From Candidatus Sumerlaeota bacterium (lineage in GTDB: Bacteria > Sumerlaeota > Sumerlaeia > SLMS01 > JAHLLQ01): DNA of 64,000 nt. Position numbers and translations under genes: made by a program. How positions within the stretch are numbered: position 1 is the first letter of the stretch; each line of letters opens with the position of its first letter. This document shows, piece by piece, positions 30,071 to 59,273 of this stretch. The stretch spans positions 5,237 to 69,236 of the forward strand of contig JASGMJ010000009.1 of assembly GCA_030156535.1 (NCBI GenBank), read 5' to 3'. Below the pieces are notes generated by a model that worked only from the letters and a program-made list of their open reading frames with translations, had not been told where the DNA came from and ran no database searches.

Positions 30071-30949
30071 GTGACTACCGCTTCTCTTCCGCAAGATCTC
30101 CTGAAGTGCCACTCCTTCTCCATCGGCTCCGTCCCCGTGGGAGGGGCCAATCCCCTCGTCCTGATCGCCGGACCGTGTGTGATCGAGAGCCGCGAGCACG
30201 CCCTCGAAATGGCCGAGCGCATCGCCCGCATCGCCCAGCGCCTTTCGATTCCGCTCATCTTCAAGGCTTCCTACGACAAGGCGAACCGCAGTTCCTCGCA
30301 ATCCTACCGGGGGCCGGGTCTCGAACGCGGGCTGGCGATTCTCGGGGAAGTCCGCTCTTCCGTCGGGTGTCCCGTTCTCACGGATGTTCACACCGAAGAG
30401 CAGGCTGCCGTTGCCGCCAGCGTGGTCGATGTCCTGCAACTCCCCGCTTTTCTCTGCCGCCAGACGGATTTCGTTCAGGCATGCGGACGCACGGGCAAGC
30501 CAGTTGCCGTGAAAAAGGGGCAGTTCCTTGCTCCCGAGGACATGACCAACGTTGTCGAGAAGCTGCGCGAAGTTGGGTGCAACGACATCCTGCTCACCGA
30601 ACGCGGCGCTTCGTTCGGCTACCGCAATCTTGTCTCCGACTTCCGTTCACTTGCCATCATGCAGGCGCTGACCGGTCTTCCCGTTTGCTTCGACGCAACG
30701 CATAGCGTTCAGCAACCCGGTGGCCTCGGAACGGCTTCTGGTGGCAAGCGCGAGTTCGTTCCGCTCTTGGCGCGGGCGGCCTGTGCCGTTGGCATCAACG
30801 TCTTGTTTCTCGAAGTACACGACCGGCCCGAGCAGGCGCTGAGCGACGGCCCCAACATGGTGCCTCTCACTGATCTCGAAGCCCTGCTCAAGGTCTGCCT
30901 GGCACTTGATGCCGCTGTTCGCTCGGCTCTGCAGGACGGTGCGCAGTGA
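30071..30949 (+). CDS. kdsA: 3-deoxy-8-phosphooctulonate synthase (KDO8P synthase), GTG start
   Basis: [23 protein letters not shown] and ATHSVQ motifs are characteristic of KdsA. Confidence 0.9.
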
Positions 30950-31806
30950 CTTCGGATTCTCCCACCGGCACCGCGAAGGTTGTTGTCCTGCCGCGCCAAC
31001 CGCTGATGCGGGTGGCCGCCATTGTGGAGTACGACGGCACGGGCTTCGCCGGCCTCCAGCGCCAGGTCGGTCAGCCCTCCATCCAAGCCTGCTTCGAGAA
31101 AATGGCGGCGGCCTTTGGGGTGCGCGATGCCGGATTCAGGGCTGCCGGACGCACCGATGCGGGCGTCAACGCACGGGGACAGGTCATCGCCATCCATATC
31201 CCCGAAACGATTCGTGGCAAGAACCTCATCAGCGCCATGAACTGGCACCTTCCCGAATCCATTCGCGTGCGCCGCGCCGAAATTGTCGGCCCGGACTTTG
31301 ATCCCCGGATCGATGCCCGCCTGCGCACCTACCGCTATCATCTTTGTGGTGGGCAGGCGTTTCCGCCCCTGATGCGTGGACGCATGGGACGCGTGCGTGC
31401 CCATCTCGACCTTGATCTCATGCGCGAAGCCGCCCAGGTTCTTCAGGGTCAGCATGACTTCAAGGCATGGCGGTCCACGATGTGCCAGGCCAAGCGCACG
31501 CTGCTGGACCTCGTGCACGTGTCCGTCGAGCCCTGGCGCGACGCCGGTCCCCACGGCATGGACACCCAGTGCTTCCAACTCGAATTCTCGTGCCGTTCCT
31601 TCCTCCACCGCATGGTTCGCTATCTCGTCGGCGGCATTGCCCGCGCAGGGGCAGGTGATCTCACGCCAGACGATCTGCGCGCTCATTTGAAGGCTGGCAC
31701 GTTGCCTCCGCGCGTCGCACCCGCCGACGCCAATGGGCTTTCACTGGAGCGCGTTGAGTACCTGCCGGAGAAAGACCCTTTTCGTGGGCCGCCATCCTGC
31801 GTCTGA
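30946..31806 (+). CDS. truA: tRNA pseudouridine(38-40) synthase
   Basis: GRTDAGVNA catalytic-Asp motif. ~270 aa. ATGA overlap with kdsA. Confidence 0.9.
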
Positions 31807-31824
31807 ACGTCGTCGCGAAGGAAC

Positions 31825-31847
31825 AAAAAAAGCGCGCCGCAGCGCGC
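31825..31847. terminator. Bidirectional rho-independent terminator (A7-GCGCGC-cgca-GCGCGC) between convergent truA and the NusG-paralog gene
   Basis: A perfect 6-bp GC stem with a 4-nt loop. An A-tract lies on the plus strand (T-tract for the minus-strand transcript) and a T-rich run follows on the plus strand. Confidence 0.5.
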
Positions 31848-31881
31848 CAGTCCTTCGTCTTCACGTCCTTTGCGACCGTCT

Positions 31882-32547
31882 CTAGGCAACCACGTCCTCG
31901 ACGTTCGCCACGACGTTCGCCAGGTTGGCGTCTGGCATTTCGCGAATCGTGGACTTCCGCCCGCGGCGGCCTGCGCGATGAGTCTTCTTGTAGGGAACAC
32001 CGCCGGTCTCGTAATCCGCCAGCACCACCCAGTCGAGCGGCACGACAATCTCCACTGCCTGGCCCACCACGGAAATCGCGGAAGCCACGCGTGCTTCGCG
32101 CTTGTTGCGCCAGACAACGATCCCCTCCACGCCTTCCAGCGGCCCCGTCACAACGCGTGCTCGTCGTCCGCGCTCGGGGATGGGGCCCAGCCGGACATCG
32201 CGCTCAAGCCCGGCAACGTAGCGCACGACGCGCATCTCCTGCTCGGGAATCGCCGAGGGCGTACCCGGACGCATTCCCACCAGATAGCGAGCCTCCGGGA
32301 TTCGGGCAGTGGATGCCGAGAGTCCCTGGCTCATCCGTGCGAGAAAGAAAACATACGAGGGAAACAGTGGCTCGGCTGCGGCACCAGCGGCACCGCCTTT
32401 CACCGTTGGCACCAGAACTTCCTCCACGGCCGGAAGGTCTTGCAGGGCATCCGCAACCCGGCACTCGGCGCCCGTGCGCGTATGCACGGCATACCAACAC
32501 GGTGCGCCACCGGATTCACGTGCTGTACTGGAAGAGGCTACTGCCAT
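31882..32547 (-). CDS. NusG-paralog transcription antiterminator (UpxY/LoaP/RfaH-like specialised NusG)
   Basis: NGN domain WYAVHTRTGAEC and KOW motif VVTGPLEGVEGIVV. It lies at the distal end of the polysaccharide export operon. Confidence 0.65.
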   Translation of the reverse strand: MAVASSSTARESGGAPCWYAVHTRTGAECRVADALQDLPAVEEVLVPTVKGGAAGAAAEPLFPSYVFFLARMSQGLSASTARIPEARYLVGMRPGTPSAIPEQEMRVVRYVAGLERDVRLGPIPERGRRARVVTGPLEGVEGIVVWRNKREARVASAISVVGQAVEIVVPLDWVVLADYETGGVPYKKTHRAGRRGRKSTIREMPDANLANVVANVEDVVA

Positions 32548-32582
32548 ACTTCGATTGCCGATTCTGCCTGAGAGTCCCGCGA

Positions 32583-33710
32583 CTACAACGGGTTGTAGGT
32601 GGCGTTCACGCCGGCCCTTGTGCCGCTGGCAAACACGTCGCCCAGGATTGCCGCGAAGGTTCTCCAGTTCGACTTGTAGATGAAGATCTGGTCATTGTCT
32701 TCGAGCACCAGGTCGGGCTGCTTGCGGCGCATCATCTCGCGGACATTCACGAAGTAGGACTCCGTCGAGCCGTTGGGATGCGTGCGCACGACTTCGGCAA
32801 TCGACTTCGCCTTGAAGTCGAGCCCGCCCGTCTCGGTGATGACCTGCACCAAAGTGCGGAGACTGGGGCCCAGGAAGACGACGCGCGGATTGCGCACGTT
32901 GCCGTTGATCGAAATCGTTCCAGCGGGCGGCACGTAGATCACGTCGTAGGGACGCAGCGGGATGTTATAGCGCAGGTCGCCGCCAAGGATGAACTCGTCA
33001 AGAGGCAGGACGATCTCCTCGCGCGGGACGATGCGTCCGTCGTCCTGGAGAAGGCGCAGCAACGCTTCCGGTTCCATTTCGACGCGCTGCTTCTGCGTCA
33101 CCTTCTCGCGGTAGATCTTCAAGATGCGCGCCGGAGGCAATCCGCCCGTGCGGCCGCCGAAGGTAAGCCCGCCCGCCTTGAAGATGGCGTCGAGCACCGT
33201 ATCGCCCACGGCCAGCTCGTAACGACCGGGTTCGCGAATGCTGCCGAGTACCGTGACCTGATTGGCGTAGTACTTCTTGATGCGAACGACGGGCACCGGG
33301 TCCTTGATGAACGGCGAATAGGCGACCTTGATTTCCTGCTGCAATTGTTCCGTCGTCTTGCCGTGCACCGTAATGGCGCCGATGTAGGGGAGCGTGATCG
33401 TCGGGCTGTCCGAGACAGTGATCTCATAGCCTTCCTGATCGCTGCCCGTCGGGCCCAGAAGGTCGGGGCGTCCGACGAACGTCAGCGACATCACGTCGCC
33501 CGGCCCGATGGCATACTCGCGCCGCGACGGCAACTGCATGTCCATGTCGGCCAGACGTTCAACTGATGTCTCCCAGTCCCGGCGCGCGGGATCGAAGGCC
33601 GGAGGAAGCCCGGCGTCGAAGGGACTGCGGGAAGGCGAGTAGCAAGCTCCCAGAAATACTGTCAGTGCCAGAAGGAACAACTGGCCCGCACTTGCGAACG
33701 CTTTTTTCAT
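32583..33710 (-). CDS. Polysaccharide export outer-membrane lipoprotein (Wza/GumB-like, SLBB domains). The start is the internal Met of the listed ORF.
   Basis: Lipoprotein signal MKKAFASAGQLFLLALTVFLGAC. Poly_export-like PGDVMSLTF motif and SLBB-like repeats. Confidence 0.8.
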   Translation of the reverse strand: MKKAFASAGQLFLLALTVFLGACYSPSRSPFDAGLPPAFDPARRDWETSVERLADMDMQLPSRREYAIGPGDVMSLTFVGRPDLLGPTGSDQEGYEITVSDSPTITLPYIGAITVHGKTTEQLQQEIKVAYSPFIKDPVPVVRIKKYYANQVTVLGSIREPGRYELAVGDTVLDAIFKAGGLTFGGRTGGLPPARILKIYREKVTQKQRVEMEPEALLRLLQDDGRIVPREEIVLPLDEFILGGDLRYNIPLRPYDVIYVPPAGTISINGNVRNPRVVFLGPSLRTLVQVITETGGLDFKAKSIAEVVRTHPNGSTESYFVNVREMMRRKQPDLVLEDNDQIFIYKSNWRTFAAILGDVFASGTRAGVNATYNPL

Positions 33711-33741
33711 CGGATCAAACCTCACACTTTCGTCAGTCGGT

Positions 33742-34923
33742 TCATGTGCCGCGTGTCGGCGCCAGCACTTGCTGGGCCGCGGTGGTGTCCTCCGAGGCAG
33801 ACGATTCGCGTGCTGCCTGGATTTCCTTCTGCTCTTCTTCCCTGCGGTGGGCGAGAAAGGAAACATTCTCGATCATGATGATGAATCCCGCGAACAGAAA
33901 AGCGGCGTTCGCCAGAATCAGCGCCGGCGATCCCGCCTTCTCGAGCGTGAACGCTGTCAGGCCAAGGTAGGCCGTCAGGAACCACAGGATCCAGACGACG
34001 CGCTTCTGTGACAAGCCCAGCCCCAGCAGGCGGTGGTGAAGGTGCTCCTTGTCGGCACTGAAGGGATGACGTCCTTGTCGTGTTCGCCGCACAATCGCCA
34101 GTGCCGTGTCCATCACGGGCACCGCAATGCACAGCAACGGAATCACCAGTGTCAGGATCGCCGTGCTCTTCGTCCCGGTTGTCAGCGTTGTGCACGCCAG
34201 CATGTAACCCAGGAAAAGACTTCCCGTGTCGCCGAGAAAAATCTTCGCGGGATGGTAATTATGAAAAAGAAAGCCGACGCACAAACCGGCCGTGAGCGCC
34301 GGCATAATCGCGTAGAACGACGTGTCGAACTGGGCGATGATCGCGGCCAGCACCAGACTCGAAATGCCACTGATGCCCGCGCACAACCCGTCCAGACCGT
34401 CGATGATGTTCAGTGCGTTCATCAGTCCGGCAAACCACAGGATCGTGATCGGCAGGCCCCAGTATCCCAGCGCAATGCGCCCCGATTCCACAAACGGCCA
34501 CGTGAGCGATTCCAGGCGCAGGCCGCCCGCGAAGACGATAACGGCCACCACGATCTGAGCTCCGAGCTTGTACAACGGGCGCATTCCCCGTGAATCATCC
34601 CAGATCCCCACAACGACGATGATCGTGGCTCCCAGAATGATCGCCAGAAACTCGCGCCCCGCTCCGGCGAACAGGGCGGGAGCCAGAAAATAGAGAGCAA
34701 GTGTCACGAGGGCGAAGCTGGTGAACAGCGCGAGCCCGCCCAGTCGAGGTGTCGGCTTCGTGTGAACCCGGCGGGCATCAACCTGATCGATCGCTCCGAT
34801 CACGTAAGCGATCCGCCCCGCCACGGGTGTCAGCAACCACGTCAGCACCGCTCCCGCAGCGCACGCAAGTGCCAGCAGAACCCAAAGTGGAACTTCGCCT
34901 CCCAGTGTCGGGATCACTGTCAT
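33742..34923 (-). CDS. Undecaprenyl-phosphate sugar-1-phosphate transferase (GT4 MraY/WecA family; initiating GlcNAc-1-P transferase-like)
   Basis: DD motif (IWDDSRG), NALNIIDGLDGL and HLHHRL motifs, and ~10 TM segments. Confidence 0.85.
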   Translation of the reverse strand: MTVIPTLGGEVPLWVLLALACAAGAVLTWLLTPVAGRIAYVIGAIDQVDARRVHTKPTPRLGGLALFTSFALVTLALYFLAPALFAGAGREFLAIILGATIIVVVGIWDDSRGMRPLYKLGAQIVVAVIVFAGGLRLESLTWPFVESGRIALGYWGLPITILWFAGLMNALNIIDGLDGLCAGISGISSLVLAAIIAQFDTSFYAIMPALTAGLCVGFLFHNYHPAKIFLGDTGSLFLGYMLACTTLTTGTKSTAILTLVIPLLCIAVPVMDTALAIVRRTRQGRHPFSADKEHLHHRLLGLGLSQKRVVWILWFLTAYLGLTAFTLEKAGSPALILANAAFLFAGFIIMIENVSFLAHRREEEQKEIQAARESSASEDTTAAQQVLAPTRGT

Positions 34924-37259
34924 TTATCTCTGCCCGTCGAGCCAGCCAATGCCGGCTTTGTGATTTCCCCAGACTCGTCCTTCGACGCGTCCTTCCCGTA
35001 ACTGTATCCGTATCCGTAGCCGTATCCATAGCCGTAGTCGTTGCCGCTGTTGCTTCGCTTCATCGTGTTGTAGACCACGCCCAGAATCTTCGCTTCCATC
35101 GAGCGCAGCTTCTTCGTTGTGTGAACGAGAGCTTCCATCTGGGTCTTGCCAGGCCGCACGACGAGGATGACGCCGTCGGCCTTCTGGGAGAGCACCAGAG
35201 CATCGGCCATCCCATGCGCCGGGCACGTATCGAGCAGGATCGTCGAATAGCGTCCGCGAAGCTGGGTGATCAAATCCGTCATTGCCTTGCTGTCGAGCAG
35301 CGACACCGACGACGGTGTTGCACGTCCTGCCGGGAGCACGTCCAGATTATCGCGCACGGAGGAGACGATGGCCTCGTCGATGGTGGTCTGCCCCGTCAGC
35401 ACGTCGCTCAATCCGGGCACCTTGGCCAACTGGAACTCGCGATGCACCACCGGTCGCTTGAGGTCTGCGTCGATAAGCAACGTCCGCTCGGAACGTTCGC
35501 CAAAGAACGACGCCAGATTCGAGGAGACCGTGGACTTCCCTTCCTGGGGAAAGCAGCTTGTGATGACGATCACCTGCGGCGAGCGTCCTGCACTGGAATA
35601 TTGAATCGATGTGCGGACATAGCGCACGGCTTCGGCAGCTGGCGTCTTGGAATTCTGAGCCAGCGGTGCATGTACCCGCTTGCCCCGTCCGCGGATAAGA
35701 CCTTTCTCGCCGGCATGCAGGTAGGGGAGGACTCCGAGGAAGGGGAGGCTCAGGCTGTTCTCCACGGCTCTGGGGTCTCTCACCGAGCGGTCGAGAATGC
35801 TGATCGAAAGAACCAGGCCCGCGCCGAACAGCAGACCGAGGATCCCCGCGATGACAAGGATGCGCGAGACGTTGGGTGAAATGGGCTTGGTTGGAATGCT
35901 TGCCGGCCCCAGCACCGAAACGTTCGACTTCCGTGCATCATCCGTCACTTCGATCTTCTTGTACTGATCAAGCAACGAGTTGAGCACCTGGCGCGTGGCT
36001 TCGATCTCCCTCTGGGGGATTCTCAGGGAAATCAACTGCTTCTCCAGCGCATCGACGCGTTCGCGCTGAGCTTCCAGACGGTTTTCAAGTGCGGCGAGTT
36101 TCAGCCGGGCGACTTCCAGCTTGTCCTCGTTCAGTTCCTGATAGTCCGCCGTTGCCTTTCGGATTTGTTCCTCAATGCCATCGAGTTCCTTCTTCAAGCG
36201 AACGAGTGGCAGGAAGGTGTCATCGTTTTCCGCTGAGAGCTTCGCGTATTCCGCCAGCAACTCGGACTTGCGCTCCAGCAATCCCTGGATCAGCCGGTTG
36301 TCCATGTCGAGCATCATGCGGCTGTCCGGCGAGCGGTAGGCCGCCGCCTCCGCCTCCAGCAGGTCCACCTCATAACGCTGCGTCTCGACCTGCTTGGTCA
36401 GCGTCGTCAACGTTTCGATCGCGATCTGGCGTTCAGCGTCCGTGACGCTGAGGTCCGCCTTTCCGCTCACCTGATACAGTTCTTTCTCGGCCTTGGCGAG
36501 TTCGCTCTTGGTCTTGTCGATCTGGTCCTTCACATAGCCACGGGCGTAAGTCGACGATTGCCGCTGTCCCCGTTCCATGTAAGCGATGAATTCGTTCGCG
36601 TAGGCATTGGCGATTTGTGCCGCCCGTTCCTTGTTGCTGCTTCGCACCTTCACTTCGATGATGCGTGTTTCGGGGCGAAGGCGCACGTCAATGCTGTTGA
36701 TCAGCGAATTGATGCGTCGTTGTTGCCGGACGACTTCGCCGTCCACACTCTTCTGCTCCGATACGAGCACATTGTTGACCTTCTCTGACACAAAACTCAC
36801 GAACTCGCGAATGCGTGCCAGAGGTGATTCGTCCTTCACCTGTTCCGTTGTCTTCATTGGGCCCAGCACGCGCAACACTTCCGTTGCGATTGCCGGGCTC
36901 TTCAACATTTCGACAGCCGTATTGATCTCATCGCGGGGAAACATCATTGACTGGCTTTCGCCGAAATCCACCACGGCCGACTTGGGGTCGTACTTGATTT
37001 GCACGACGGATTCGTACACCAGGGCCGAACGCTTGATCTGGAAGGCGCCCAGCATCAGGAACAGCACGACGAAAAACAGTACGAACCACCGGCGATGCCA
37101 GAGAAGTTCGATGTAACGGCGCACTTCCGCGAAGTCGTCTCCCGACTCCGCTTCCCGAGGCACTGCCTCCAGCAAAATCGGCTGCATTGCTGCCGTGGGA
37201 ACCATTTGGGAGTTCGCCGCCGGGGCACTCCCTTGCTCACGATTCGATGAGTTGCTCAA
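34920..37259 (-). CDS. Polysaccharide co-polymerase + BY-kinase (Wzc/GumC-like) with a C-terminal tyrosine cluster
   Basis: Wzz-like N-terminus with a TM helix and a long coiled-coil periplasmic region. Walker A GKSTVSSNLA, DxD. C-terminal YGYGYGYGYSYG tail. Confidence 0.85.
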   Translation of the reverse strand: MSNSSNREQGSAPAANSQMVPTAAMQPILLEAVPREAESGDDFAEVRRYIELLWHRRWFVLFFVVLFLMLGAFQIKRSALVYESVVQIKYDPKSAVVDFGESQSMMFPRDEINTAVEMLKSPAIATEVLRVLGPMKTTEQVKDESPLARIREFVSFVSEKVNNVLVSEQKSVDGEVVRQQRRINSLINSIDVRLRPETRIIEVKVRSSNKERAAQIANAYANEFIAYMERGQRQSSTYARGYVKDQIDKTKSELAKAEKELYQVSGKADLSVTDAERQIAIETLTTLTKQVETQRYEVDLLEAEAAAYRSPDSRMMLDMDNRLIQGLLERKSELLAEYAKLSAENDDTFLPLVRLKKELDGIEEQIRKATADYQELNEDKLEVARLKLAALENRLEAQRERVDALEKQLISLRIPQREIEATRQVLNSLLDQYKKIEVTDDARKSNVSVLGPASIPTKPISPNVSRILVIAGILGLLFGAGLVLSISILDRSVRDPRAVENSLSLPFLGVLPYLHAGEKGLIRGRGKRVHAPLAQNSKTPAAEAVRYVRTSIQYSSAGRSPQVIVITSCFPQEGKSTVSSNLASFFGERSERTLLIDADLKRPVVHREFQLAKVPGLSDVLTGQTTIDEAIVSSVRDNLDVLPAGRATPSSVSLLDSKAMTDLITQLRGRYSTILLDTCPAHGMADALVLSQKADGVILVVRPGKTQMEALVHTTKKLRSMEAKILGVVYNTMKRSNSGNDYGYGYGYGYGYSYGKDASKDESGEITKPALAGSTGRDK

Positions 37260-37407: not shown

Positions 37408-38871
37408 TCATGTCTGCCCACGTGAGCCTATTGCCTTGGTGCCCGTCAAGAGTAAGGCACCCACCAAGAGAAAATGAAATCCCACGATGGGCAGCCGTAG
37501 ATGAAAGTCGAAAAAGGCATGAACAAGCGTGATGGCCATTCCCGCCAATGCAGCCCGGCGGAATCCTCTCATCCGCCTGCCAAGAATCGCACTTCCACTG
37601 TCCCATTCTCTCTTGAAGCATCGCAGGAACCACACCAAGGCGCCAAGAACGGCCGCCGTCCAGACCAACCCCAGTTCCGAAACTACTTGCACATAATCGT
37701 TGTGCGACCAAACGGCAAGAACACTTGTGGGTCTGCCAAGCAGGAAACGGTTTATGGATGCCTCGGCTCCGCCCAGCCCCAAACCCAGCAGCGGAACCTG
37801 TGCCAAACCCTTCAGTGTCGCCAGCCAGTACGCGGCTCGCCCTCCCAAATCCTCGGTCTCTGGCAGCCGGGCCGCGAAACCTTCGAGCGCCGACGAAAAG
37901 AGAAGAAGAGTGATGCCGGAAGCAGCAATCAGCCCCATCACCCAGACGTTTACCCCCAGCAGCCCGCCACCGTCACTCTTGCGCTTCTGTGTGCCTTGTT
38001 CGCGCTTCCTCCCAATCGGAAGGCGCATCGCAACATCGGCCAGTCCCACCAAGGCGACGGCTAGCAACGAACCGCGCGAAAGCGCCAGCATCCAGCCGAT
38101 AAAAGCCACCGCGACCACGCCACCCAGAAACAGCATCAGGTCGCGCCGCTGCGACTCCATGTAGCCGTAGCGATTGTATTTCTGCCGCGTTGCCACCCAC
38201 CATGCGGCAATGGGCAGACCCAGCATCACAAGCGCTGCGTGATGGTTCGAGTTGTACGCAATGCCGAAAGCACGGTCGGTGCTTCCCAGCACATAGACCA
38301 CAGCCCCGATCCACGCCTCCACCACGGCACCACCCGCCACCAGGACAGCCAGAATGACAAAGCCGCGCTGGCGCGATGCCACGACGCAGGCACCGATGAA
38401 ATACAGCAGACTCGCTGCCATCTGGTTCCAGCCGCGCCATGCCGCTTCGGGCGTGATGGCCAGTGGCACGCGGTCGGGCACCGGATAGCCTGCCTGCCGC
38501 ATGGCCGCCAATGCTTCACGCCAAAAGGGCGACACCCGTTCGACAAAATCCACGGGTAGGGGAATCAGCGTCGCCCCCGACCACAGAAGCGTTCCCACGC
38601 CAATCGCCAGCAGAACGCGCAACGCCGTGTACGGACGCAGGCTGAACCGCCCCGATGCCCAGAACGCAACTCCCCACACTCCCAGCAGCCCGCAGGCAAT
38701 CCAGCCCCAGGCCCGCAACATATCCTCATACCCATATCCAAAAGAAAAGCACGCGCCCGCCTCGATCAGCAAAACCAACGCAGGCCCTACCCAGTAAAAT
38801 GCCTCCCGAAGGGTGACCCCCGAGCCCAGCCCACCACTCTCCCACTCCTGCTCCCAAGACGCATGGGTCAT
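37408..38871 (-). CDS. O-antigen ligase / Wzy_C-family membrane protein
   Basis: Polytopic. Wzy_C signature SHNDYVQVVSELG in a large periplasmic loop. Confidence 0.7.
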   Translation of the reverse strand: MTHASWEQEWESGGLGSGVTLREAFYWVGPALVLLIEAGACFSFGYGYEDMLRAWGWIACGLLGVWGVAFWASGRFSLRPYTALRVLLAIGVGTLLWSGATLIPLPVDFVERVSPFWREALAAMRQAGYPVPDRVPLAITPEAAWRGWNQMAASLLYFIGACVVASRQRGFVILAVLVAGGAVVEAWIGAVVYVLGSTDRAFGIAYNSNHHAALVMLGLPIAAWWVATRQKYNRYGYMESQRRDLMLFLGGVVAVAFIGWMLALSRGSLLAVALVGLADVAMRLPIGRKREQGTQKRKSDGGGLLGVNVWVMGLIAASGITLLLFSSALEGFAARLPETEDLGGRAAYWLATLKGLAQVPLLGLGLGGAEASINRFLLGRPTSVLAVWSHNDYVQVVSELGLVWTAAVLGALVWFLRCFKREWDSGSAILGRRMRGFRRAALAGMAITLVHAFFDFHLRLPIVGFHFLLVGALLLTGTKAIGSRGQT

Positions 38872-40178
38872 TGAGTGACTTCTCCTTGCGCGGTGGCGAA
38901 CTCGATGCCTTCCAGATAAACGACCTGATCCCCGGCCTCCGGGGCATCACGGTGTGTGCGCCCCAAGGAAAGCGACAGCATTACCGGTGCATCGGTGGGA
39001 GCGAGAACAGCTTCGTACACGCTTTCTTCCTCCGCCATTGGCACCTTGCGTGCGCTATTGTGAAAGGCTTCTCCCTGCTTGGCGATCAGGATGCACGGCG
39101 ACTCGGTCGCACCTTCCGCCCGCAGGCGAATGCGCACGCGGACAGGATGCTCGTGCGCGGGCATCGGCAACTCATACATCAGCCAGCGGAACTCTTTGCT
39201 CTTCACCGGAGAGGCGCGGAACGTCAGCCTCAGCCTTCCTGCTCCCTCGCCTTCCAGCCAGTACAACTCCGCGTTCGGTGTTATTGTGAAAGGCCGCCAG
39301 CCAAAAGGAAAATTGTCTGACAACGGCGAGCGTTCCAGCGTCAGGTTCTCCGCCAGCAGAGGAGGTTGCGTGTTGGCGCCGGGCACCTGCTCCAGGCTGC
39401 CGCTCTCCAACTGCCAGACCTTCCAGGCCGCTTCCAGCACGACAGGGCTCTTCAGCAGTCGTGCCAGTCGCTGGCGAAACTCCGCGTCCGAATATGTCTC
39501 TTCGGGGATCAAGGACACGACTTCGGCTACGGCGTCCGCATCATTGTACCAGAGTCCCTCAAGAAGATCCGCCGTCTCGGCAGGGGAGAGCCCCTCGCGC
39601 CACAAGAGACCCCAAGCCTCGCTCGGAGGCACTCCGATCCACAGCAGGCGTTGCGCGGCGGCCTTGCGTGCGCTTGCCGTCGTACCGCCAATCTGCACTG
39701 CCAGAGCAACGGCCCGGTCGCGCTCACCGAGCAAGTCCCACAACTCGACGGCCATCAGACGCCGATCGGTGTGGAACGGATGGAGGACGTCGGAATGCTC
39801 CAGCGCCGCTCTTGCCTGGTCGGGTTCGCCCTGAAACAACCGGTAACGTGCTCCATAGAGCCAGAGTTTGGACTTCATGGGCGCCAGCAGCAACGCGCGT
39901 GCGATCAACTCCTGGGCCCCTTCGTACTGCGGCGGAATTGGCTGCTCGCCAAGGAAGTACGCCATCGTCAGCAGCTGCTCCGAGTCGGCGGGAACATCCG
40001 CGAGCGTCTGCGACGCCAGAAATTCGAAGTCATCGCGCTCCCACTGCACCCGCCAGGCCTCGCGTTCCTCGAGCGACTGCAGATTCGCTCGCCCCCAATA
40101 CGCGACGGTGGGGACAAGAAATGCCAGAACCAACCAACGGTGCCAGCGGGAGCTTCTCTTTTTGCCTGATGGGGACAC
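38868..40178 (-). CDS. Membrane-anchored hypothetical protein (N-terminal TM, helical-repeat-like region). Co-transcribed with the O-antigen ligase-like gene.
   Basis: N-terminal TM WLVLAFLVPTVAY. ATGA-type 4-nt overlap with the downstream gene. Confidence 0.45.
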   Translation of the reverse strand: MSPSGKKRSSRWHRWLVLAFLVPTVAYWGRANLQSLEEREAWRVQWERDDFEFLASQTLADVPADSEQLLTMAYFLGEQPIPPQYEGAQELIARALLLAPMKSKLWLYGARYRLFQGEPDQARAALEHSDVLHPFHTDRRLMAVELWDLLGERDRAVALAVQIGGTTASARKAAAQRLLWIGVPPSEAWGLLWREGLSPAETADLLEGLWYNDADAVAEVVSLIPEETYSDAEFRQRLARLLKSPVVLEAAWKVWQLESGSLEQVPGANTQPPLLAENLTLERSPLSDNFPFGWRPFTITPNAELYWLEGEGAGRLRLTFRASPVKSKEFRWLMYELPMPAHEHPVRVRIRLRAEGATESPCILIAKQGEAFHNSARKVPMAEEESVYEAVLAPTDAPVMLSLSLGRTHRDAPEAGDQVVYLEGIEFATAQGEVTQ

Positions 40179-40292
40179 GGGAGAATCGCGAAAGGGGAGT
40201 GTGCAGAAGGAGCAGCGGTGCAGTCACAAAAAAGCGCCGGGGCAAGCAACCGCCCCGGCGCACGTATCATTGTAAGGAAAGGACTTCGCCGA

Positions 40293-41132
40293 TCAGGGGA
40301 TCAGGTCGCTGGCATCCAGATCGTTGAGTTCCTTGCGGAGCTTGTGCACGTCGTCTTCCAGATTGCTGGACTTGTTCAGGCCATAGATTCCAACGCCCAG
40401 GCCTGCAACGCCAACGCCAACACCGGCGAGACCCACTGCGGAACCGCCGCCACCGCCGCCACCGCTGGATGCTGCGGGTGCGGTGGTCTGGGCTGCATCC
40501 TGCTGGGCCAGCGGCTGGAGGCCGCGCGTACCGGGCATCCACTTGCCCGCTTCGTTCAGCACCATTTCGAGCGTATCGTTGGCGCCGACCACGGCAAGCT
40601 GCGCGCCGGTCTTGATATCCTTGACCACGGCCATCTCGTTGAGCGCGGAGAGGCGGATCGTCTGCGGGCCAAGCTGTTCCACGGCGAGAACCGCGGACTT
40701 CGCTTCGCCAGCCGTCGGCACCACTTCCGTCTCACCCTCTTCGGCGAGCGGCTGAACCGTGCTGAAATCAATCGTGTCGTACTCAACACTCATCGGGTTG
40801 CCCGACTGGAAACCGGCAGCCACGGTGCCCGACTGCAAGCGGACAATGCGCTCCTGGACCATGGAGACTTCCGAGTTGCTGCCAACCAGCACAGTGCCGT
40901 TGTCCGCGAGGCGGATTGTCACAGGCTCGGCACCCGCGATGACGCGGTCGCCCACCATCAGGCGCGCCATCTGGCCAGCACCCGGTGTCATCGTGTCCGT
41001 TGCCTGGACGATTTCATAGCCACCCTTCCCATCCACAACCCCAACCCAAGTTGCGGCGGCCTCAGCCCCCATTCCAAAGGCGGGCAGCGATAGCACTCCC
41101 GCTGTCAGCAAGATTCCGAGAAACTTCTTCAT
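40293..41132 (-). CDS. Secreted hypothetical protein with a Gly-rich C-terminal hydrophobic segment
   Basis: Signal peptide MKKFLGILLTAGVLSLPAFG. C-terminal SSGGGGGGGSAVGLAGVGVGVAGLGVGIYGL. Confidence 0.5.
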   Translation of the reverse strand: MKKFLGILLTAGVLSLPAFGMGAEAAATWVGVVDGKGGYEIVQATDTMTPGAGQMARLMVGDRVIAGAEPVTIRLADNGTVLVGSNSEVSMVQERIVRLQSGTVAAGFQSGNPMSVEYDTIDFSTVQPLAEEGETEVVPTAGEAKSAVLAVEQLGPQTIRLSALNEMAVVKDIKTGAQLAVVGANDTLEMVLNEAGKWMPGTRGLQPLAQQDAAQTTAPAASSGGGGGGGSAVGLAGVGVGVAGLGVGIYGLNKSSNLEDDVHKLRKELNDLDASDLIP

Positions 41133-41442
41133 GTTGAGCTGCCTGTCCTATATTGAGATAGTGAAATGCTTAAAGACGAGAATGGATACGCCTCGACTTG
41201 CCGGTGATGAGAACCGCTCCCATGCCCCGTGTCAAGCTGGAAGGGAGACTTTTTTGCAGATACTTCTCGCCGATCCACAAATCGAAGAGATTTTCTGTCT
41301 GATACTTTGCATTCTGATTCTATTGGGCTTGAGGGTGGGTGGAGATGCGTGTCGCCGGGCTCTGAAGCTGGCTGCTTAGTTGTCGGGGCCAAAAAAAATC
41401 ACATTCGGCACCCTGAATCTATCGCGCTCCACATTGCCGTCA

Positions 41443-42042
41443 TCAGGCGGGATCTTCTGCTGCGCCATCAGCCGATATCATGGTGGACTTCTCTGGACGC
41501 CCGGCGGCAAGACCTCTCCGCCGCCCTATAATTGAAGCTACCCTCCTTGCCGCTCCCCAGGCAATCAGGAAAGCGCCCCATCCTGCAATAATCCCCCCCC
41601 AAGCCCACTGGAGGTCCTCCCATGTTGCGTTGCGTTTTGGGATGAACTGTTGCCGATACTCATCATAAGCGGGAATCAGGAGCACCGCCAGCAGCGGAAT
41701 CCCCAGTGCCACCCACTTCCACCGCCGCCCCAGAAGGCGTATTCCCAGAAACCCCAGAAAACCGGCCAGCAACCCGTAGGGCACGGAGACGGCGAAGTGG
41801 AGATAGTAGTCGATATGCCTGGGAGGGGTCTTGCGCCATCTCGGGGGAGTCAGTGCATGGACGATCCGGTTGCTCCGGATTTCCTTCTCATACCGTTGCG
41901 TCGTCGCAACGGGGGAGGTGGCCAATGTCGTGGTGAAGGCAAAGTAGCCTCCCAGAATACAGAGGGCCAAGCCGAGCAGCACGCTCAACCTAAGGTGACT
42001 CCGGCGAGACTGATTATTCTTTTGTGGGGAACATTCCTGCAT
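41443..42042 (-). CDS. Small polytopic membrane protein, possibly VanZ-like
   Basis: Four predicted TM helices. The assignment is weak. Confidence 0.35.
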   Translation of the reverse strand: MQECSPQKNNQSRRSHLRLSVLLGLALCILGGYFAFTTTLATSPVATTQRYEKEIRSNRIVHALTPPRWRKTPPRHIDYYLHFAVSVPYGLLAGFLGFLGIRLLGRRWKWVALGIPLLAVLLIPAYDEYRQQFIPKRNATWEDLQWAWGGIIAGWGAFLIAWGAARRVASIIGRRRGLAAGRPEKSTMISADGAAEDPA

Positions 42043-42130
42043 TGTCGGGGCAACTTCCCTATGTTGTCATTCTTCCGGAAAGAGCAACTCGCGGGCCGGA
42101 GAGTCAGCACGGCTTTCGTGCCTGCAATCT

Positions 42131-42192
42131 CGTGTCAAGCCGCGCAACGTGTCCACCCTTTTGCATATGCAAGCACAACGTGGCTTGACACG
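42131..42192. promoter_or_regulatory. Nested palindromic element in a 440-bp divergent intergenic region. A 14-bp inverted repeat (cgtgtcaagccgcg / cgtggcttgacacg, 1 mismatch) flanks a perfect palindrome TTGCATATGCAA.
   Basis: Seen directly. Each IR arm carries TTGACA (a -35-like hexamer) facing a divergent gene. Confidence 0.35.
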
Positions 42193-42483
42193 CGAAATCC
42201 TCCGCCCTTACATCCCCCCGCCACTGCGAGGGGCGTCGCGTTCAAGGCTCCATGGATTGTTGTTTTCCATGTCGAAGCCGTTCTGCTCTCCGTCTCTCCG
42301 TCTCCTGAAATGACTCTCTCGAGCCTTTTCCGTTTGTTCGGAAATCGGCAACGGGGAAGATTTCGTCTTCCCTCACCCACTTGATTCCCAATCCTGAAGT
42401 CTTGTTCGAGAGCACCTCGCATTGCGCTGCGCCAGTTGATCTGGCTTCTGTGACAGTAACAATTCCCCCAAGGTAGGAAATTA

Positions 42484-43845
42484 ATGACAGCAACAGCTTC
42501 TCTTCTCGATCAATCCTTGAATCCTGCTGCCACGCAACTCATCGACAAAATCCGCAACCGCACCGCAGTGATCGGTGTCATCGGCCTTGGCTATGTCGGG
42601 CTTCCGCTGCTCATCGAGTTCCACAAGGCTGGCTTTCCGGTTATTGGGCTCGACATCGACACCAGCAAAATCGAGAGCCTGCGTGCCGGCAAGTCCTACA
42701 TCCTCCACATCCCCGGCGAGAACGTCGCGGCGATGGCTGCGAGCGAAAAGTTCTCCGCCTCCTCCGACATGGCCGACGCGAACAAGTGCGACGCGCTGCT
42801 TCTGTGCGTTCCGACGCCACTAACCCATCACCGCGAACCGGACATCACGTATGTCACCTGCACCTGCGAGAGCATCGCTCCGGCCATGCGCGCCGGCCAG
42901 ATCGTCATCCTCGAATCCACAACCTACCCGGGCACGACCGATGAAGTCATGGTGCCGATTCTGGAGAAGGGCTCGGGCCTGAAGGCCGGGCGCGACTTCT
43001 TCGTCGCCTACTCGCCCGAACGCGAAGACCCCAGCAACAAGAGCTTCAGCACGGCAACGATCCCAAAGGTCGTCGGCGCCATGACGCCCCAGGGACTCGA
43101 AGCGGCCAAGAGCCTCTACGATGCCGTCGTCGTGAAGACGATCCCCGTTTCCTCCACGCGCGTCGCCGAAGCCACCAAGCTGATGGAGAACATCTTCCGC
43201 TGCGTCAACATCGCGATGGTCAACGAACTCAAAGTCGTTTTCCAGCGGATGGACATCGACATCTGGGAGGTCATCGAGGCCGCCAAGACCAAGCCCTTCG
43301 GCTTTATGCCCTTCTATCCCGGCCCCGGCCTGGGTGGACACTGCATCCCCATCGACCCCTTCTATCTGACGTGGAAGGCGCGCGAGTACGAAACGCCCAC
43401 CCGCTTCATCGAACTCGCTGGTGAAATCAACACCGAGATGCCCAAGTACGTCGTTTCGCAGACGATGGAAGCTCTCAACGAGCAGGGCAAGGCACTCAAG
43501 GGAAGCCGCATCCTGCTCATCGGATTGGCCTACAAGGCTGATGTCGACGACTTGCGCGAAAGCCCCACCTTCAAGCTCATCGAACTCTTCGAGAAGCGCG
43601 GCGCCGAAGTTCTCTTCCACGACCCGCACATTCCCGAAATCATGATGACGCGTGAACACGCCGCCCTTGCAGGCCGCAAATCCGTCCCGCTGGACGAGGC
43701 TGCGAAGTGCGACGCAACGGTCATCTCCACCGCGCACGCCGCCGTCGATTACGCCAAGCTTGGTAAGATCGCCAAGGTCATCGTCGACACGCGCAACGCC
43801 ATGGTGGGTGTCACCGACGCCACCGCCGCCATCCACAAAGCCTGA
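42484..43845 (+). CDS. UDP-N-acetyl-D-mannosamine/glucosamine 6-dehydrogenase family (nucleotide-sugar dehydrogenase, WecC/Cap5O/WbpA-like)
   Basis: N-terminal Rossmann IGVIGLGYVGLP, catalytic-Cys region GGHCIPIDP and a UDP-binding C-terminal domain. Confidence 0.9.
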   Translation: MTATASLLDQSLNPAATQLIDKIRNRTAVIGVIGLGYVGLPLLIEFHKAGFPVIGLDIDTSKIESLRAGKSYILHIPGENVAAMAASEKFSASSDMADANKCDALLLCVPTPLTHHREPDITYVTCTCESIAPAMRAGQIVILESTTYPGTTDEVMVPILEKGSGLKAGRDFFVAYSPEREDPSNKSFSTATIPKVVGAMTPQGLEAAKSLYDAVVVKTIPVSSTRVAEATKLMENIFRCVNIAMVNELKVVFQRMDIDIWEVIEAAKTKPFGFMPFYPGPGLGGHCIPIDPFYLTWKAREYETPTRFIELAGEINTEMPKYVVSQTMEALNEQGKALKGSRILLIGLAYKADVDDLRESPTFKLIELFEKRGAEVLFHDPHIPEIMMTREHAALAGRKSVPLDEAAKCDATVISTAHAAVDYAKLGKIAKVIVDTRNAMVGVTDATAAIHKA

Positions 43846-43938
43846 TCGCCTTCAACATTCGACTGCCGGCCGGGGGTCTTCTTTGACCGTTCCCCTCCCT
43901 GGCCGGCACATCTTCCCTCCCCCTACAAGAGCAAACTC

Positions 43939-44949
43939 ATGAAGATTCTCGTTACCGGAACGGCCGGTTTCATCGGCTTCCATCTTGCCAACTCGCTGCT
44001 CGATGACGGCCATGAAGTCGTCGGACTCGACAACTTCAATCAGTACTACGCCCCCGTTTTGAAGGAACGCCGTCACGCCATCCTCGAAGCACGCGAAGGC
44101 TTCCGCCCGTTCAAGTGCTCGCTCGAGGACTCTGATCGCGTCCTTGCCTGCATGAAGCAGGAGCGCTTTGACGTGGTCGTCAACCTGGCCGCACAGGCCG
44201 GCGTGCGCCACTCGCTCACACATCCCTTCGATTACATGCGCTGCAATCTCGAAGGGTTCCTCAGCATCCTCGAAGGCTGCCGTCACTCCGAAGTCCCGCG
44301 ACTGGTGTACGCCTCCAGTTCCAGCGTCTATGGCAGCAACACCAAGCTGCCCTTCAGCGAGTCCGACAGCGTCGATACTCCCGTCAGCCTCTACGCCGCC
44401 ACAAAGAAGGCCAACGAGCTGATGGCCCACACCTACACGCACCTCTACGGCCTCCAGACCATCGGCCTGCGGTTCTTCACGGTCTACGGCCCGTGGGGAC
44501 GCCCCGACATGGCCATGTGGCTGTTCGCCGACGCCATTCAGCAAGGCAAGCCCATCAAGGTCTTCAACCACGGCGACATGCGCCGCGACTTCACCTACAT
44601 CGCAGAAATTGTCGATGGCGTGAAGCGTTGCGTTGTCACCGAAGGCCTCGACAAGTACGAAGTCTTCAACCTCGGCAACCATCGCAGCGAAAAGCTGATG
44701 GATATGATCGAGTACCTCGGAAAGTGCATGGGCAAGCAGCCCGAAATGGAACTGCTTCCCATGCAGCCTGGCGATGTGCCCGCGAGCTTTGCCGACATTG
44801 ATCGCGCCCGCACGAAGCTGGGCTTCGAGCCGCGCACGACCATCTTCGACGGCGTCTCCGCATTCGTCGAGTGGTTCAAGGAAAACCAGGACCTCGTCGA
44901 CCAGGTACGTGCCTGGGAATCCCGGCCGCAAACCGGCACAAAGGTCTGA
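43939..44949 (+). CDS. NAD-dependent epimerase (UDP-glucuronate 4-epimerase-like, GalE/WcaG family)
   Basis: ILVTGTAGFIGFHL and the YAATKKANE catalytic motif. Confidence 0.9.
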   Translation: MKILVTGTAGFIGFHLANSLLDDGHEVVGLDNFNQYYAPVLKERRHAILEAREGFRPFKCSLEDSDRVLACMKQERFDVVVNLAAQAGVRHSLTHPFDYMRCNLEGFLSILEGCRHSEVPRLVYASSSSVYGSNTKLPFSESDSVDTPVSLYAATKKANELMAHTYTHLYGLQTIGLRFFTVYGPWGRPDMAMWLFADAIQQGKPIKVFNHGDMRRDFTYIAEIVDGVKRCVVTEGLDKYEVFNLGNHRSEKLMDMIEYLGKCMGKQPEMELLPMQPGDVPASFADIDRARTKLGFEPRTTIFDGVSAFVEWFKENQDLVDQVRAWESRPQTGTKV

Positions 44950-44960
44950 GCAACAAACCC

Positions 44961-46256
44961 ATGACATCTCCCCTTATCCGCATCGAAGGTCCCACGCCGC
45001 TCTTCGGCGAAATCGACGTGCGTGGCGCCAAGAACGCCGCGCTGCCGCTCCTCATGGCCGCCGCGGCAGGCTCCGCGCCAGTCACACTGACGAACCTGCC
45101 CACGGAACTCCGTGACATCCAGGCCGAGATCGAAGCCCTGCGCTATATCGGCTGCAACGTCGAGCAGGCCGACGGCACCGCCACGCTCGCGCTCTCCGAC
45201 CCCACGACCACCGAGCTTCCCCCGGAAATCTCCGGCAAGATTCGCACATCCCTACTCTTCCTTGGTCTTCTGGCCGGCAGATTCGGACACGCGAAGATCA
45301 CCATGCCGGGGGGGTGCGATCTCGGTGACCGCAAGTTCGACCTCCATCTCGAAGGCCTGCGCCTTCTTGGGGCCGATATTCACGTCGACGAGCACTCCAT
45401 CGAAGTCACGGCCAAAAAGCTGAAGGGCGCCGACATTCACTTCTACCTTCCTTCAACCACCGGGACGGAGAACGTGATGATTGCGGCGTGCTTTGCCGAG
45501 GGCCGCACGCGCATCTTCAATGCGAACACCCGCCCCGAAGTCGCCGACCTTGCCGTCTGCCTCAACGCGATGGGAGCACGCATCTCCGTGCGCAACCGCG
45601 TCGTCGAAGTGGAGGGCGGCCGCCTTCTTGGTGGTGCCACGCACAAGGTGATGAAGGGCTGGGACGAAGCGGTGACGTACATTCTCGCCGCGGGACTCTC
45701 CGGGGGGGAAATCTGTATCCGGGATTTCAGCACCGACTTCATCCGCAACGATGTCGCCTACATGCGCGACGCCGGACTCGATGTTTTCGAATGGGGCGGA
45801 AATCTCTATGCCAGCGGCAAGGGCAAGAAGCTCCGCGCCTTTGATCTCTTCACGGCTCCCTATCCGGGAGTAAACTCCGACATGCAGCCGCTCTTCGCCG
45901 CCTTCGCCAGCAAGTGCGAGGGCTCGACGAGTGTCACCGACCAGCGATTCACCGAACGCTTCCAATACGCCGCCGAACTCCGCAAGATGGGCGTGCCGAT
46001 CGAATCCTACGGCAATTGCGCCGTGATCGAAGGACCTGCCCGCCTCAAGGGCGCCAATGTCCGCGCGCTCGATCTGCGTTGCGGAGCCGCCCTTGTCATG
46101 GCCGGCCTTGCCGCGGAAGGCACGACGGTCATCGACAATTGCCAGCAAATCTATCGCGGCTACGAGCTTCTCGTTCCGCGCCTTCGTTCGCTTGGGGCCA
46201 ATATCAGCGGCGAGACCGAAGAAACAAATGTCCGGTTGCAACCCTCTCATGCCTGA
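44961..46256 (+). CDS. murA: UDP-N-acetylglucosamine 1-carboxyvinyltransferase paralog (MurA-like enolpyruvyl transferase) embedded in the polysaccharide cluster
   Basis: KNAALPLL motif and active-site Cys loop GGCDLGDRKFDLH. ~430 aa, EPSP-synthase-fold repeats. Confidence 0.85.
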   Translation: MTSPLIRIEGPTPLFGEIDVRGAKNAALPLLMAAAAGSAPVTLTNLPTELRDIQAEIEALRYIGCNVEQADGTATLALSDPTTTELPPEISGKIRTSLLFLGLLAGRFGHAKITMPGGCDLGDRKFDLHLEGLRLLGADIHVDEHSIEVTAKKLKGADIHFYLPSTTGTENVMIAACFAEGRTRIFNANTRPEVADLAVCLNAMGARISVRNRVVEVEGGRLLGGATHKVMKGWDEAVTYILAAGLSGGEICIRDFSTDFIRNDVAYMRDAGLDVFEWGGNLYASGKGKKLRAFDLFTAPYPGVNSDMQPLFAAFASKCEGSTSVTDQRFTERFQYAAELRKMGVPIESYGNCAVIEGPARLKGANVRALDLRCGAALVMAGLAAEGTTVIDNCQQIYRGYELLVPRLRSLGANISGETEETNVRLQPSHA

Positions 46257-47208: not shown

Positions 47209-47217
47209 CTCCACCAC

Positions 47218-53141: not shown

Positions 53142-53400
53142 CGCTTGCAGGCCGAGGTGTTTTTCGCGGAAAGAAGTCTGCGCCATTGGCGCTGCCCCGC
53201 CTGTGAATCAGTTGCCACGTCATTTGGGCACGACGGGATTGCACAGGATTTACCTCCTTGACGTGGGTGTGGGCGAATGATCCGGAGGGTGGGCGGAAGG
53301 GCTGATGAGCCTCGCGGAAGCGACTTTCGCCAGAGCCCCCGCTTTGGCCGGCAGCTCTCTCGTCTGCCCAGATCTATAGAAGCAATCAGAAGGGCATCCA

Positions 53401-59246: not shown

Positions 59247-59273
59247 CCGTTTCGATTCGAGTTCACTTCTCCG

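Follow-up and report, generated by a model that had tools for sequence, protein, structure and literature searches.

A specialised NusG paralog with an arginine-rich tail, encoded at the end of an exopolysaccharide export operon in Candidatus Sumerlaeota

Paralogs of NusG are the main known bacterial route through very long capsule, lipopolysaccharide (LPS), antibiotic and conjugation operons: such specialised NusG paralogs (NusG-SPs) are activators of long operons for polysaccharides or antibiotics, and some that are encoded in cis work in trans (PMC7819879). Among RfaH, UpxY and LoaP the main difference is the mode of recruitment, and their genes lie either ahead of their targets or separately from them. 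LoaP, present in Bacillota, Actinomycetota and Spirochaetota and linked to long polysaccharide and secondary-metabolite clusters, reads through intrinsic terminators, needs a UNCG-type hairpin in the leader RNA and antagonises NusA at such terminators (PMC12691694). UpxY of Bacteroides, dedicated to a capsule or exopolysaccharide (EPS) locus, is the first gene of its capsule operon, with the gene of the anti-Y inhibitor UpxZ next to it; its recruitment takes place at the opsX pause sites of the leader (PMC11685472). RfaH of Proteobacteria activates long LPS, capsule and EPS operons in trans. Here we analyse a gene of this kind in a 64,000-nucleotide stretch of a Candidatus Sumerlaeota genome (assembly GCA_030156535.1, contig JASGMJ010000009.1, positions 5,237 to 69,236 of the forward strand; hereafter the window), which an original prediction, made from the DNA letters without database searches, had picked out as a specialised NusG paralog lying at the distal end of a polysaccharide export operon. 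The gene, here called nusG-SP, and the parts of its product are the following.

31882..32547 (-): nusG-SP gene, ATG start, 221 amino acids, stop codon included (open reading frame, profile searches and AlphaFold2)
32212..32499 (-): NGN domain, residues ~17-112 (Pfam, AlphaFold2 and superposition)
32008..32193 (-): KOW-type β-barrel, residues ~119-180, with an extra strand at 174-180 (AlphaFold2 and profiles)
31954..31989 (-): arginine-rich tail motif KKTHRAGRRGRK, residues 187-198, diagnostic of the subfamily described below
31885..31953 (-): variable C-terminal end, predicted to be disordered, ending in -VVA (predicted local distance difference test, pLDDT, below 50)

Judged from profile matches and a predicted fold, the window protein is a specialised NusG paralog of the NusG/Spt5 superfamily, with an NGN domain followed by a β-barrel KOW. 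The deposited protein identical to it over 100% of positions (P0001), from a metagenome-assembled genome (MAG), is labelled ‘hypothetical protein, Candidatus Sumerlaeota bacterium’. The Pfam NusG/NGN model PF02357 scores 42.2 bits over residues 17-107, where the cut-off is 22.2, and the full-length models of LoaP, UpxY, NusG and RfaH all align to residues 18-172, that is, to NGN plus KOW; no Pfam KOW match is reported at E <= 0.01. An AlphaFold2 (AF2) model computed with a 25-sequence family alignment (mean pLDDT 84.7, predicted TM-score 0.74) places the NGN elements at pLDDT above 90 (strands 17-23, 41-45, 65-70 and 86-89, helices 28-36, 74-81 and 102-112), together with an equally confident five-stranded KOW barrel (127-132, 141-147, 151-158, 163-170 and 174-180), and with these three lines of evidence the NGN-plus-KOW architecture first proposed for the protein holds. 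The barrel glycines G127, G135 and G142 are invariant in the subfamily alignment, as is the LFPxY motif at residues 61-65. Foldseek searches with the model return NusG structures: the NGN domain superimposes on that of E. coli NusG in the elongation complex (6c6u_N) at 1.9 Å, and the best two-domain superpositions are with T. maritima NusG (2lq8) and with 8f5g, a ‘NusG-RNA complex’ that is also the top sequence match in the PDB (E = 1.7e-12). We take 8f5g to be, probably, the LoaP-RNA structure cited in PMC12691694. Unlike the autoinhibitory α-hairpin of RfaH, the KOW of NusG-SP is predicted by AF2 in the β form only, a kind of prediction that may miss fold switching.

Measured against the curated NCBIfam models, NusG-SP comes closest to LoaP (NF033641, 68.3 bits against a cut-off of 125) and next to UpxY (NF033644, 51.1 against 100), followed by the nusG equivalog (TIGR00922, 32.4 against 135.7) and RfaH (TIGR01955, 26.8 against 144.5). 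Since all four scores fall below the curated cut-offs, the protein is not the housekeeping NusG and belongs to none of the named paralog families. The resemblance to UpxY, LoaP and RfaH that had been proposed is thus borne out, below threshold, for the first two, and not for RfaH, which scores lower than NusG itself. The claim that the gene encodes a specialised paralog and not the housekeeping factor stands: in addition to the low TIGR00922 score, the window holds no second NusG-like open reading frame, and a secE/rplK context is absent around the gene, whose neighbours are wza and a convergent truA. We also considered a recent horizontal acquisition of the gene alone, which is unlikely because its GC content matches that of the neighbouring genes.

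Apart from its sub-threshold score and the different phylum, the protein differs from LoaP in the segment after the KOW domain. The LoaP and UpxY profile alignments end at residue 170-172, and the conserved arginine-rich tail falls outside the LoaP, UpxY, NusG and RfaH profiles alike. An hmmsearch of 1.84 billion cluster representatives, with a profile built from the four closest sequences, matched 2388 NusG-like proteins; about 20 cluster representatives scored 85-172 bits and aligned through profile positions 205-209, and the next NusG-like matches scored at most 72 bits, with alignments that stop near profile position 174. The members have in common the post-KOW motif [KR]x[RPT]HR[GAS]G[RK]Rx[RK]R; its core, HR[GAS]G[RKA]R (SR in two cases), occurs in all of them (26 of 26) and in 0 of 164 other NusG-like matches. 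Within the tail, R191, G193 and R195 are invariant and H190 is kept in at least 90% of the sequences (subfamily alignment A8), and 8-11 basic residues fall within ~15 positions. All 22 subfamily members scanned lie below the cut-off of every named family, LoaP and UpxY included, and identity among members is 30-60%, indicating rapid divergence. Every named source is Candidatus Sumerlaeota, several members being without taxonomy; together they make up a small unnamed NusG-SP subfamily that is largely or wholly Sumerlaeotal. By motif and gene order it is a discrete subfamily, set off by the arginine-rich C-terminal tail and by a habitual place as the terminal cistron after wza. The NusG literature that we searched describes neither a tail of this kind nor this gene position.

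A further feature of the C-termini, read in sequences P0001-P0004, P0020-P0038 and P0171 (window positions 31885-31893), is a terminal [AV]A-COOH, present in 15 of 26 tail-bearing proteins and in 15 of 164 other NusG-like ones. It is reminiscent of ssrA/ClpX-type C-terminal degrons, and NusG-SP might be short-lived.

Turning to the gene’s surroundings, nusG-SP is the terminal cistron of the export operon hyp436-wzy-wzc-wecA-wza-nusG(SP). The minus-strand order from 5' to 3' runs from a VanZ-like gene through hyp279, the terminator T1, hyp436, Wzy_C, Wzc, the WecA-like protein, Wza and NusG-SP to the terminator T3 and the convergent truA, which agrees with the prediction that the gene ends a Wzc-WecA-Wza-NusG-like series.

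41443..42042 (-): VanZ-like gene
40293..41132 (-): hyp279, a secreted or anchored protein upstream of T1 (relatives found by tblastn)
40228..40261 (-): T1, internal intrinsic terminator between hyp279 and hyp436, 10-12-bp GC stem followed by U6
38868..40178 (-): hyp436, conserved, weakly TPR-like, first gene of the export block, no Pfam match
37408..38871 (-): Wzy_C-family polymerase/ligase-like membrane protein (Pfam PF04932, 33 bits)
34920..37259 (-): Wzc-type polysaccharide co-polymerase/tyrosine autokinase (Wzz, GNVR and AAA_31 domains)
33742..34923 (-): WecA/MraY-family initiating phosphoglycosyl transferase (Pfam Glycos_transf_4, 131 bits)
32583..33710 (-): wza-type outer-membrane polysaccharide export lipoprotein (Pfam Poly_export and SLBB)
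32548..32582 (-): wza/nusG-SP spacer, 35 nt
31824..31848 (-): T3, intrinsic terminator of the export/nusG-SP transcript, GGCGCGC-UGCG-GCGCGC followed by U7
30946..31806 (+): truA, convergent

The 35-nt spacer between wza and nusG-SP holds neither a terminator-like site nor a promoter-like one, the latter by a sigma-70 consensus that may not fit Sumerlaeota. Further upstream, Wzc scores above the cut-off of TIGR01007 (157 bits against 108) and is separated from the Wzy_C gene by a 148-nt gap, and the WecA-like protein reaches 147 bits with TIGR02380, below the cut-off of that model. The start of Wza is likely the ATG at 33710, which gives an LGAC lipobox, a lipoprotein signal and a length of 375 amino acids as in relatives; the longest open reading frame, 32583-33866 (-), would overlap wecA by 125 nt.

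To compare gene position across the subfamily, the context of relatives was read from 20-kb loci, with L003, L012 and L015 being short contigs. The close relatives, at 57-63% identity, are L001 and L002 (JGI metagenomes), L003 (a Logan assembly) and L010 (a GTDB Sumerlaeia MAG); they carry the same order, hyp-hyp-hyp440-wzy-wzc-wecA-wza-nusG, with a spacer of 32-35 nt and another convergent gene downstream. In L001 (9905-10597, JGI Ga0484959_000061) the ortholog as called by JGI, P0004, has 198 amino acids and is truncated at its N terminus, where the WYAV strand is missing; with the true start, the ATG at 9905, the protein has 230 amino acids and the spacer after wza is again 35 nt long. The distant members compared, at 30-42% identity, are arranged as follows.

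L012: nusG-SP directly after wza, spacer 30 nt
L015: nusG-SP directly after wza, 4-nt overlap
L016: hyp441-wzy-wzc-wza-nusG, spacer 12 nt
L017 (another Sumerlaeota MAG): nusG-SP directly after wza, spacer 3 nt
L014: nusG-SP after wza-PHP phosphatase, 4-nt overlap
L013: nusG-SP as first gene with a 328-nt leader, then GT4-hyp442-wzy-wza-wzc
L018: nusG-SP monocistronic, adjoining wzc and UGDH

The gene thus follows wza in nine loci, representing six of the eight lineages with readable context (directly in the window, L001/L002, L003, L010, L012, L015, L016 and L017, and after wza-PHP in L014), with gaps of -4 to 35 nt; in one lineage it comes first (L013) and in one it stands alone (L018). In the relatives the spacers upstream of the gene measure 35, 32, 32, 30, 12, 3 and -4 nt, and such short distances, including the 4-nt overlaps, argue for co-transcription and often for translational coupling with the upstream gene. 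Because the downstream neighbours differ, being truA in the window and unrelated convergent genes elsewhere, the linkage is to wza and not to the gene that follows. By comparative gene order, the distal position of nusG-SP is conserved in most lineages and is not a product of chance.

This arrangement sets the gene apart from each described system in turn. LoaP has the same NGN and β-KOW domains, yet NusG-SP is the last cistron after wza and is neither adjacent to nor upstream of a target cluster. UpxY, too, is encoded inside the locus that it presumably controls, as is NusG-SP, but UpxY comes first in its operon (PMC11685472), a contrast that had been drawn correctly from the start, whereas nusG-SP is last in the window and in eight related loci and first only in L013. 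Nor is an UpxZ-like partner evident, and no small gene is conserved beside nusG-SP. Unlike rfaH, nusG-SP is not monocistronic in this genome. The genes taA and actX stand at the start of their operons, and none of TaA, ActX and PrfaH is known to have an arginine-rich tail. These proteins resemble NusG-SP in being encoded in cis within a long, in their case xenogeneic, operon (PMC7819879, PMC7593976), and PrfaH is reported to regulate itself by way of an ops-like site that directly follows the prfaH promoter (PMC11880322).

Furthermore, the subfamily travels with a particular set of export genes. The full hyp436-Wzy-Wzc-Wza module is present in the window, L001, L010, L013, L016 and L017, with a partial module in the remaining loci: all but Wzc in the stretch of L014 that was read, Wzc only in L018, and a part in L003, L012 and L015. 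Homologs of hyp436 adjoin Wzy in L001, L010, L013, L014, L016 and L017, the same loci that hold Wzy_C orthologs, and across loci the identity is 44-77% for Wza (77% between the window protein and the L001 and L010 orthologs), 37-60% for Wzc, 34-55% for Wzy and 28-44% for hyp436, while a hyp279-like protein is detected only in L001, L010 and L014 among the related loci. As shown by these gene neighbourhoods, the NusG-SP subfamily is in every case accompanied by the same export module, made up of a hyp279-like protein, hyp436, Wzy, Wzc and Wza. Tail-less NusG paralogs outside the subfamily, at ~30% identity, occupy classical arrangements.

L007: tail-less NusG paralog, first gene of an EPS operon
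L008: tail-less NusG paralog, first gene of an NRPS-like cluster
L004 (GCA_030157145.1), 6868-20510: tail-less paralog, ~31% identity, between wza-PCP-kinase and a UGDH-led biosynthesis block, all on one strand

The L004 layout may resemble the ancestor of the position after wza. As for hyp279, it is conserved and combines a signal peptide with a hydrophobic segment rich in Gly and a C-terminus that is charged and coiled; it is tandemly duplicated in relatives (L001, 133-1026 and 1241-2134; L010, 103-2181), and its match in L014 lies at 6759-8081.

The minus-strand genes had been taken for a single unit. Their order is as stated, but the strong internal terminator T1 splits them. T1 lies ~45-50 nt upstream of the hyp436 start codon and leaves no room for a standard promoter, so that transcription of the export genes, and of the paralog itself, plausibly has to start at the hyp279 promoter and read through T1. 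The place and the stem of this terminator are kept in L001 (2163-2203) and L010 (~2229), with one G-C to A-T compensatory pair, and when 42215-42490, 41125-41205 and 40170-40300 were folded the T1 hairpin was the sole notable structure; T1 could be an attenuator of the export genes. At the other end, T3 has a 7-bp stem (31848-31831) followed by U7 and is canonical on the minus strand only. The strong terminator proposed after the gene is therefore real on that strand, whereas its supposed bidirectionality is weakly supported because, read on the plus strand, the hairpin has A7 in front of it and no U-tract behind it. In L013, hairpin terminators fall between GT4 and hyp442 (12339-12362, UUCG loop, 10-bp stem) and between wza and wzc (16415-16436).

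The candidate promoters and the second transcription unit of the locus are these.

41229..41237 (-): GCTTGACAC, promoter-like (-35-type) motif upstream of hyp279
42132..42140 (-) and 42183..42191 (+): divergent GCTTGACAC pair between the vanZ-like gene (-) and the biosynthesis unit (+)
42192..42483 (+): candidate leader of ~290 nt, possible target region
42484..63591 (+): EPS biosynthesis unit, at least 18 co-oriented genes over 21 kb, to the window end (Pfam)

The 9-mer GCTTGACAC occurs in exactly three copies in the 64 kb, all in the 1-kb EPS regulatory region; the divergent pair lies in a 17-nt inverted repeat (42128-42144 / 42179-42195), and the copy upstream of hyp279 is kept upstream of its orthologs in L001 (1136-1144) and L010 (1179-1187). 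The three copies are most simply read as the promoters of the locus, GCTTGACAC itself being probably a -35 element in extended form or else a site at which a regulator of the locus acts, and with this reading the leader of the biosynthesis unit would be ~290 nt long. The 440-bp region that had been noted before the plus-strand unit at 42484 is confirmed, at 441 bp (42043-42483), and contains both divergent copies.

The explanation of the whole that we judge best, and hold with moderate confidence, is that an export-operon-end NusG-SP acts as a processivity/antitermination factor at the EPS locus. NusG-SP would be made only once the export operon has been transcribed to its end, would then load onto RNA polymerase at the EPS locus, in trans or locally, and would serve there as a processivity/antitermination factor. 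Its first likely target would be its own terminator-interrupted operon (the hyp279 promoter, T1 and the export genes): because the antiterminator is encoded downstream of T1, its action there would close a positive-feedback loop, with a commit-to-capsule switch as the outcome. The second likely target would be the 21-kb biosynthesis operon, reached in trans. Such trans action on the plus-strand unit from 42484, which was part of the original prediction, is plausible, with RfaH as its model; in L016 and L017 the export and biosynthesis operons converge, and any action on the latter would have to be in trans or by local concentration. Compatible with antitermination are T1 in the window, L001 and L010, the hairpin terminators of L013 and the length of the proposed target operons.

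The tail may supply nucleic-acid contacts, most likely to nascent RNA, used either for recruitment or against hairpin-dependent termination, and it would be functionally analogous to RNA recognition by LoaP or to phage N-type arginine-rich motifs (ARMs). The proposed action on intrinsic terminators and RNA contact are of the same kind as those of LoaP. The ARMs of lambda and P22 N, HK022 Nun and bovine immunodeficiency virus (BIV) Tat are likewise short Arg/Gly-rich peptides, attached in the antiterminators to a factor that modifies the elongation complex. Their resemblance to RHRGGRRxRR we take as a lead and not as a test; the NusG-SP motif shares no sequence homology with these peptides and, unlike them, forms part of a NusG-fold protein instead of working alongside NusG. 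A bolder form of the proposal, to which we assign a low probability, would make the subfamily a new mechanistic class of processive antiterminator, in which a NusG paralog with an N-protein-like arginine-rich RNA-binding peptide fused to its KOW domain, encoded as the last cistron and perhaps carrying the [AV]A degron, forms a self-amplifying, rapidly resettable switch that couples completion of export transcription to terminator read-through and activation of the 21-kb operon.

Several results weigh against this antitermination proposal. A role of the tail as nucleic-acid contact is plausible by analogy and is pure inference, with the tail modelled at low confidence by AF2. Internal terminators were not seen in L014 or L016, and in L017 the terminator behind the upstream gene precedes a stretch of 205 nt in which a promoter-like site lies; a terminator-laden operon as a family-wide hallmark, which would have to hold beyond the window, L001, L010 and L013, is therefore rejected. 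Given that some loci of the family lack such terminators, T1 may do no more than end the hyp279 transcript. The nusG-SP gene may, moreover, have an internal promoter of a type to which the sigma-70 scan consensus does not fit. As to recruitment elements, the ops-like site proposed for the 42043-42483 leader was not found with the known consensus sequences: the E. coli ops GGCGGTAGnnTG, allowing up to 2 mismatches, has 65 matches in the window against 66.5 expected and none in sense orientation in the leaders, which further separates NusG-SP from RfaH; the ops core GCGNNAGC is not enriched in the window and is absent in sense orientation from the leaders; and the Bacteroides opsX core YGCGNAGCR has 21 window matches against 27.8 expected and none in the leaders 40179-40292, 41133-41442 and 42043-42483, a further difference from UpxY. 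Rfam reports no family at gathering thresholds anywhere in the window, the fold of the 42192-42483 leader is unremarkable (z = -1.5), and no orthologous plus-strand leaders were recovered from other Sumerlaeota (a metagenome scan with the hyp279 alignment returned 0 and a VanZ search returned itself and a 1-kb contig). The k-mer (T/C)CCGGCGTT, common to the leaders of five lineages, proved to be GC-rich background found throughout all loci. Finally, the effect of NusG-SP may be activation or repression.

Two other observations on these regions may be added. When the locus is compared with the LoaP pattern of a UNCG-type leader hairpin and intrinsic terminators behind it, T1 and T3 are present and the 42192-42483 leader contains a GAAGA-UUUCG-UCUUC hairpin, seen in one sequence and within the same non-significant fold. 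A one-mismatch ops-like match at 40243-40254, the sole near match of this region, was set aside as chance: it lies in the T1 loop and is not conserved in L001 or L010.

The monocistronic member in L018 and the member at the head of its locus in L013 indicate that the position is not obligatory, and RfaH works in trans from a separate locus (PMC7593976). NusG-SP could accordingly be a stand-alone, RfaH-like trans regulator with its own promoter inside the wza 3' end and a lineage-specific leader element, the place after wza reflecting linkage without feedback; a sigma-70 consensus scan may miss Sumerlaeota promoters. The spacers of -4 to 35 nt and the 4-nt overlaps over nine loci favour co-transcription instead, and the promoter-like GCTTGACAC has no exact copy upstream of nusG-SP in the 64-kb window, so that we regard the stand-alone regulator as possible, with a rather small share of the probability. 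A different sign of action is conceivable as well, given that NusG homologs vary in this respect (PMC7819879, PMC11685472): like the NusG of B. subtilis and mycobacteria, which promotes pausing and intrinsic termination, NusG-SP might be a negative or pausing factor that strengthens termination at T1, T3 or convergent junctions; as a product of completed transcription only, it would then provide negative feedback or insulation in place of activation, and the gene does lie at a convergent junction with the biosynthesis operon in L016 and L017 and by a strong terminator in the window. We think this improbable: all characterised paralogs linked to polysaccharides or secondary metabolites (RfaH, UpxY, LoaP and TaA) are activators (PMC7819879), and the top profile similarities are to LoaP and UpxY, not to NusG.

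Both RfaH and NusG contact ribosomal protein S10 through their KOW domains, and translation is activated by RfaH (PMC7819879); with the dense basic charge of its tail, NusG-SP might likewise work mainly outside transcription, its KOW and tail engaging the ribosome or the mRNA to promote translation or coupling of membrane-protein-rich EPS messages, with RNA polymerase binding secondary. The NGN core, including LFPxY, is intact and conserved, and such a role would be a branch of the NusG-SP mechanism rather than a true alternative; as the main function it seems to us quite improbable. That the protein could be the organism’s housekeeping NusG, displaced from the secE-nusG-rplK locus, is very unlikely, bordering on negligible, in view of its profile score, its genomic context, as read from the window and the 20-kb loci, and the rarity of the family: the gene lies inside an EPS locus, whereas nusG is invariably found in secE-nusG-rplKA (PMC7593976), and the family numbers ~20 clusters among 1.84 billion representatives and has diverged rapidly.

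The elements that are new here, as read from sequence comparison, are the conserved distal position, the discrete tail-bearing subfamily and its co-travel with one export module. The subfamily offers a natural test of the cis-versus-trans recruitment question for nascent NusG paralogs (PMC7819879) and a candidate new recruitment or antitermination module, and the tail motif provides a diagnostic for proteins now annotated as ‘hypothetical’ or ‘NusG’. The tail and the end-of-operon placement may turn out to represent a distinct mechanism of recruitment and feedback. The comparison also flags a conserved EPS export module in Sumerlaeota, reported from biofilms and microbial mats (PMC10866078), that includes two proteins of no assigned function, the hyp279-like protein and hyp436.

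The plus-strand biosynthesis unit itself encodes UGDH, an epimerase, MurA/MurB-like proteins, Wzx, glycosyltransferases, PGA_cap, an AsnB-like protein, a Wzy-like protein, a heparinase-like protein, WecG and a 2-epimerase. Its MurA-like (EPSP_synthase fold) and MurB-like paralogs overlap at 44871-47208 (+), and a pair of this kind inside an EPS operon suggests that the polymer contains an enolpyruvyl- or lactyl-modified (muramic-acid-like) sugar. The heparinase II/III-like open reading frame contains, at 60226-60249 (+), a hairpin of terminator type whose 9-bp stem (7 G-C pairs) runs into a U-rich tail; this hairpin could be an intragenic termination site of the kind suppressed by LoaP, or a chance structure.

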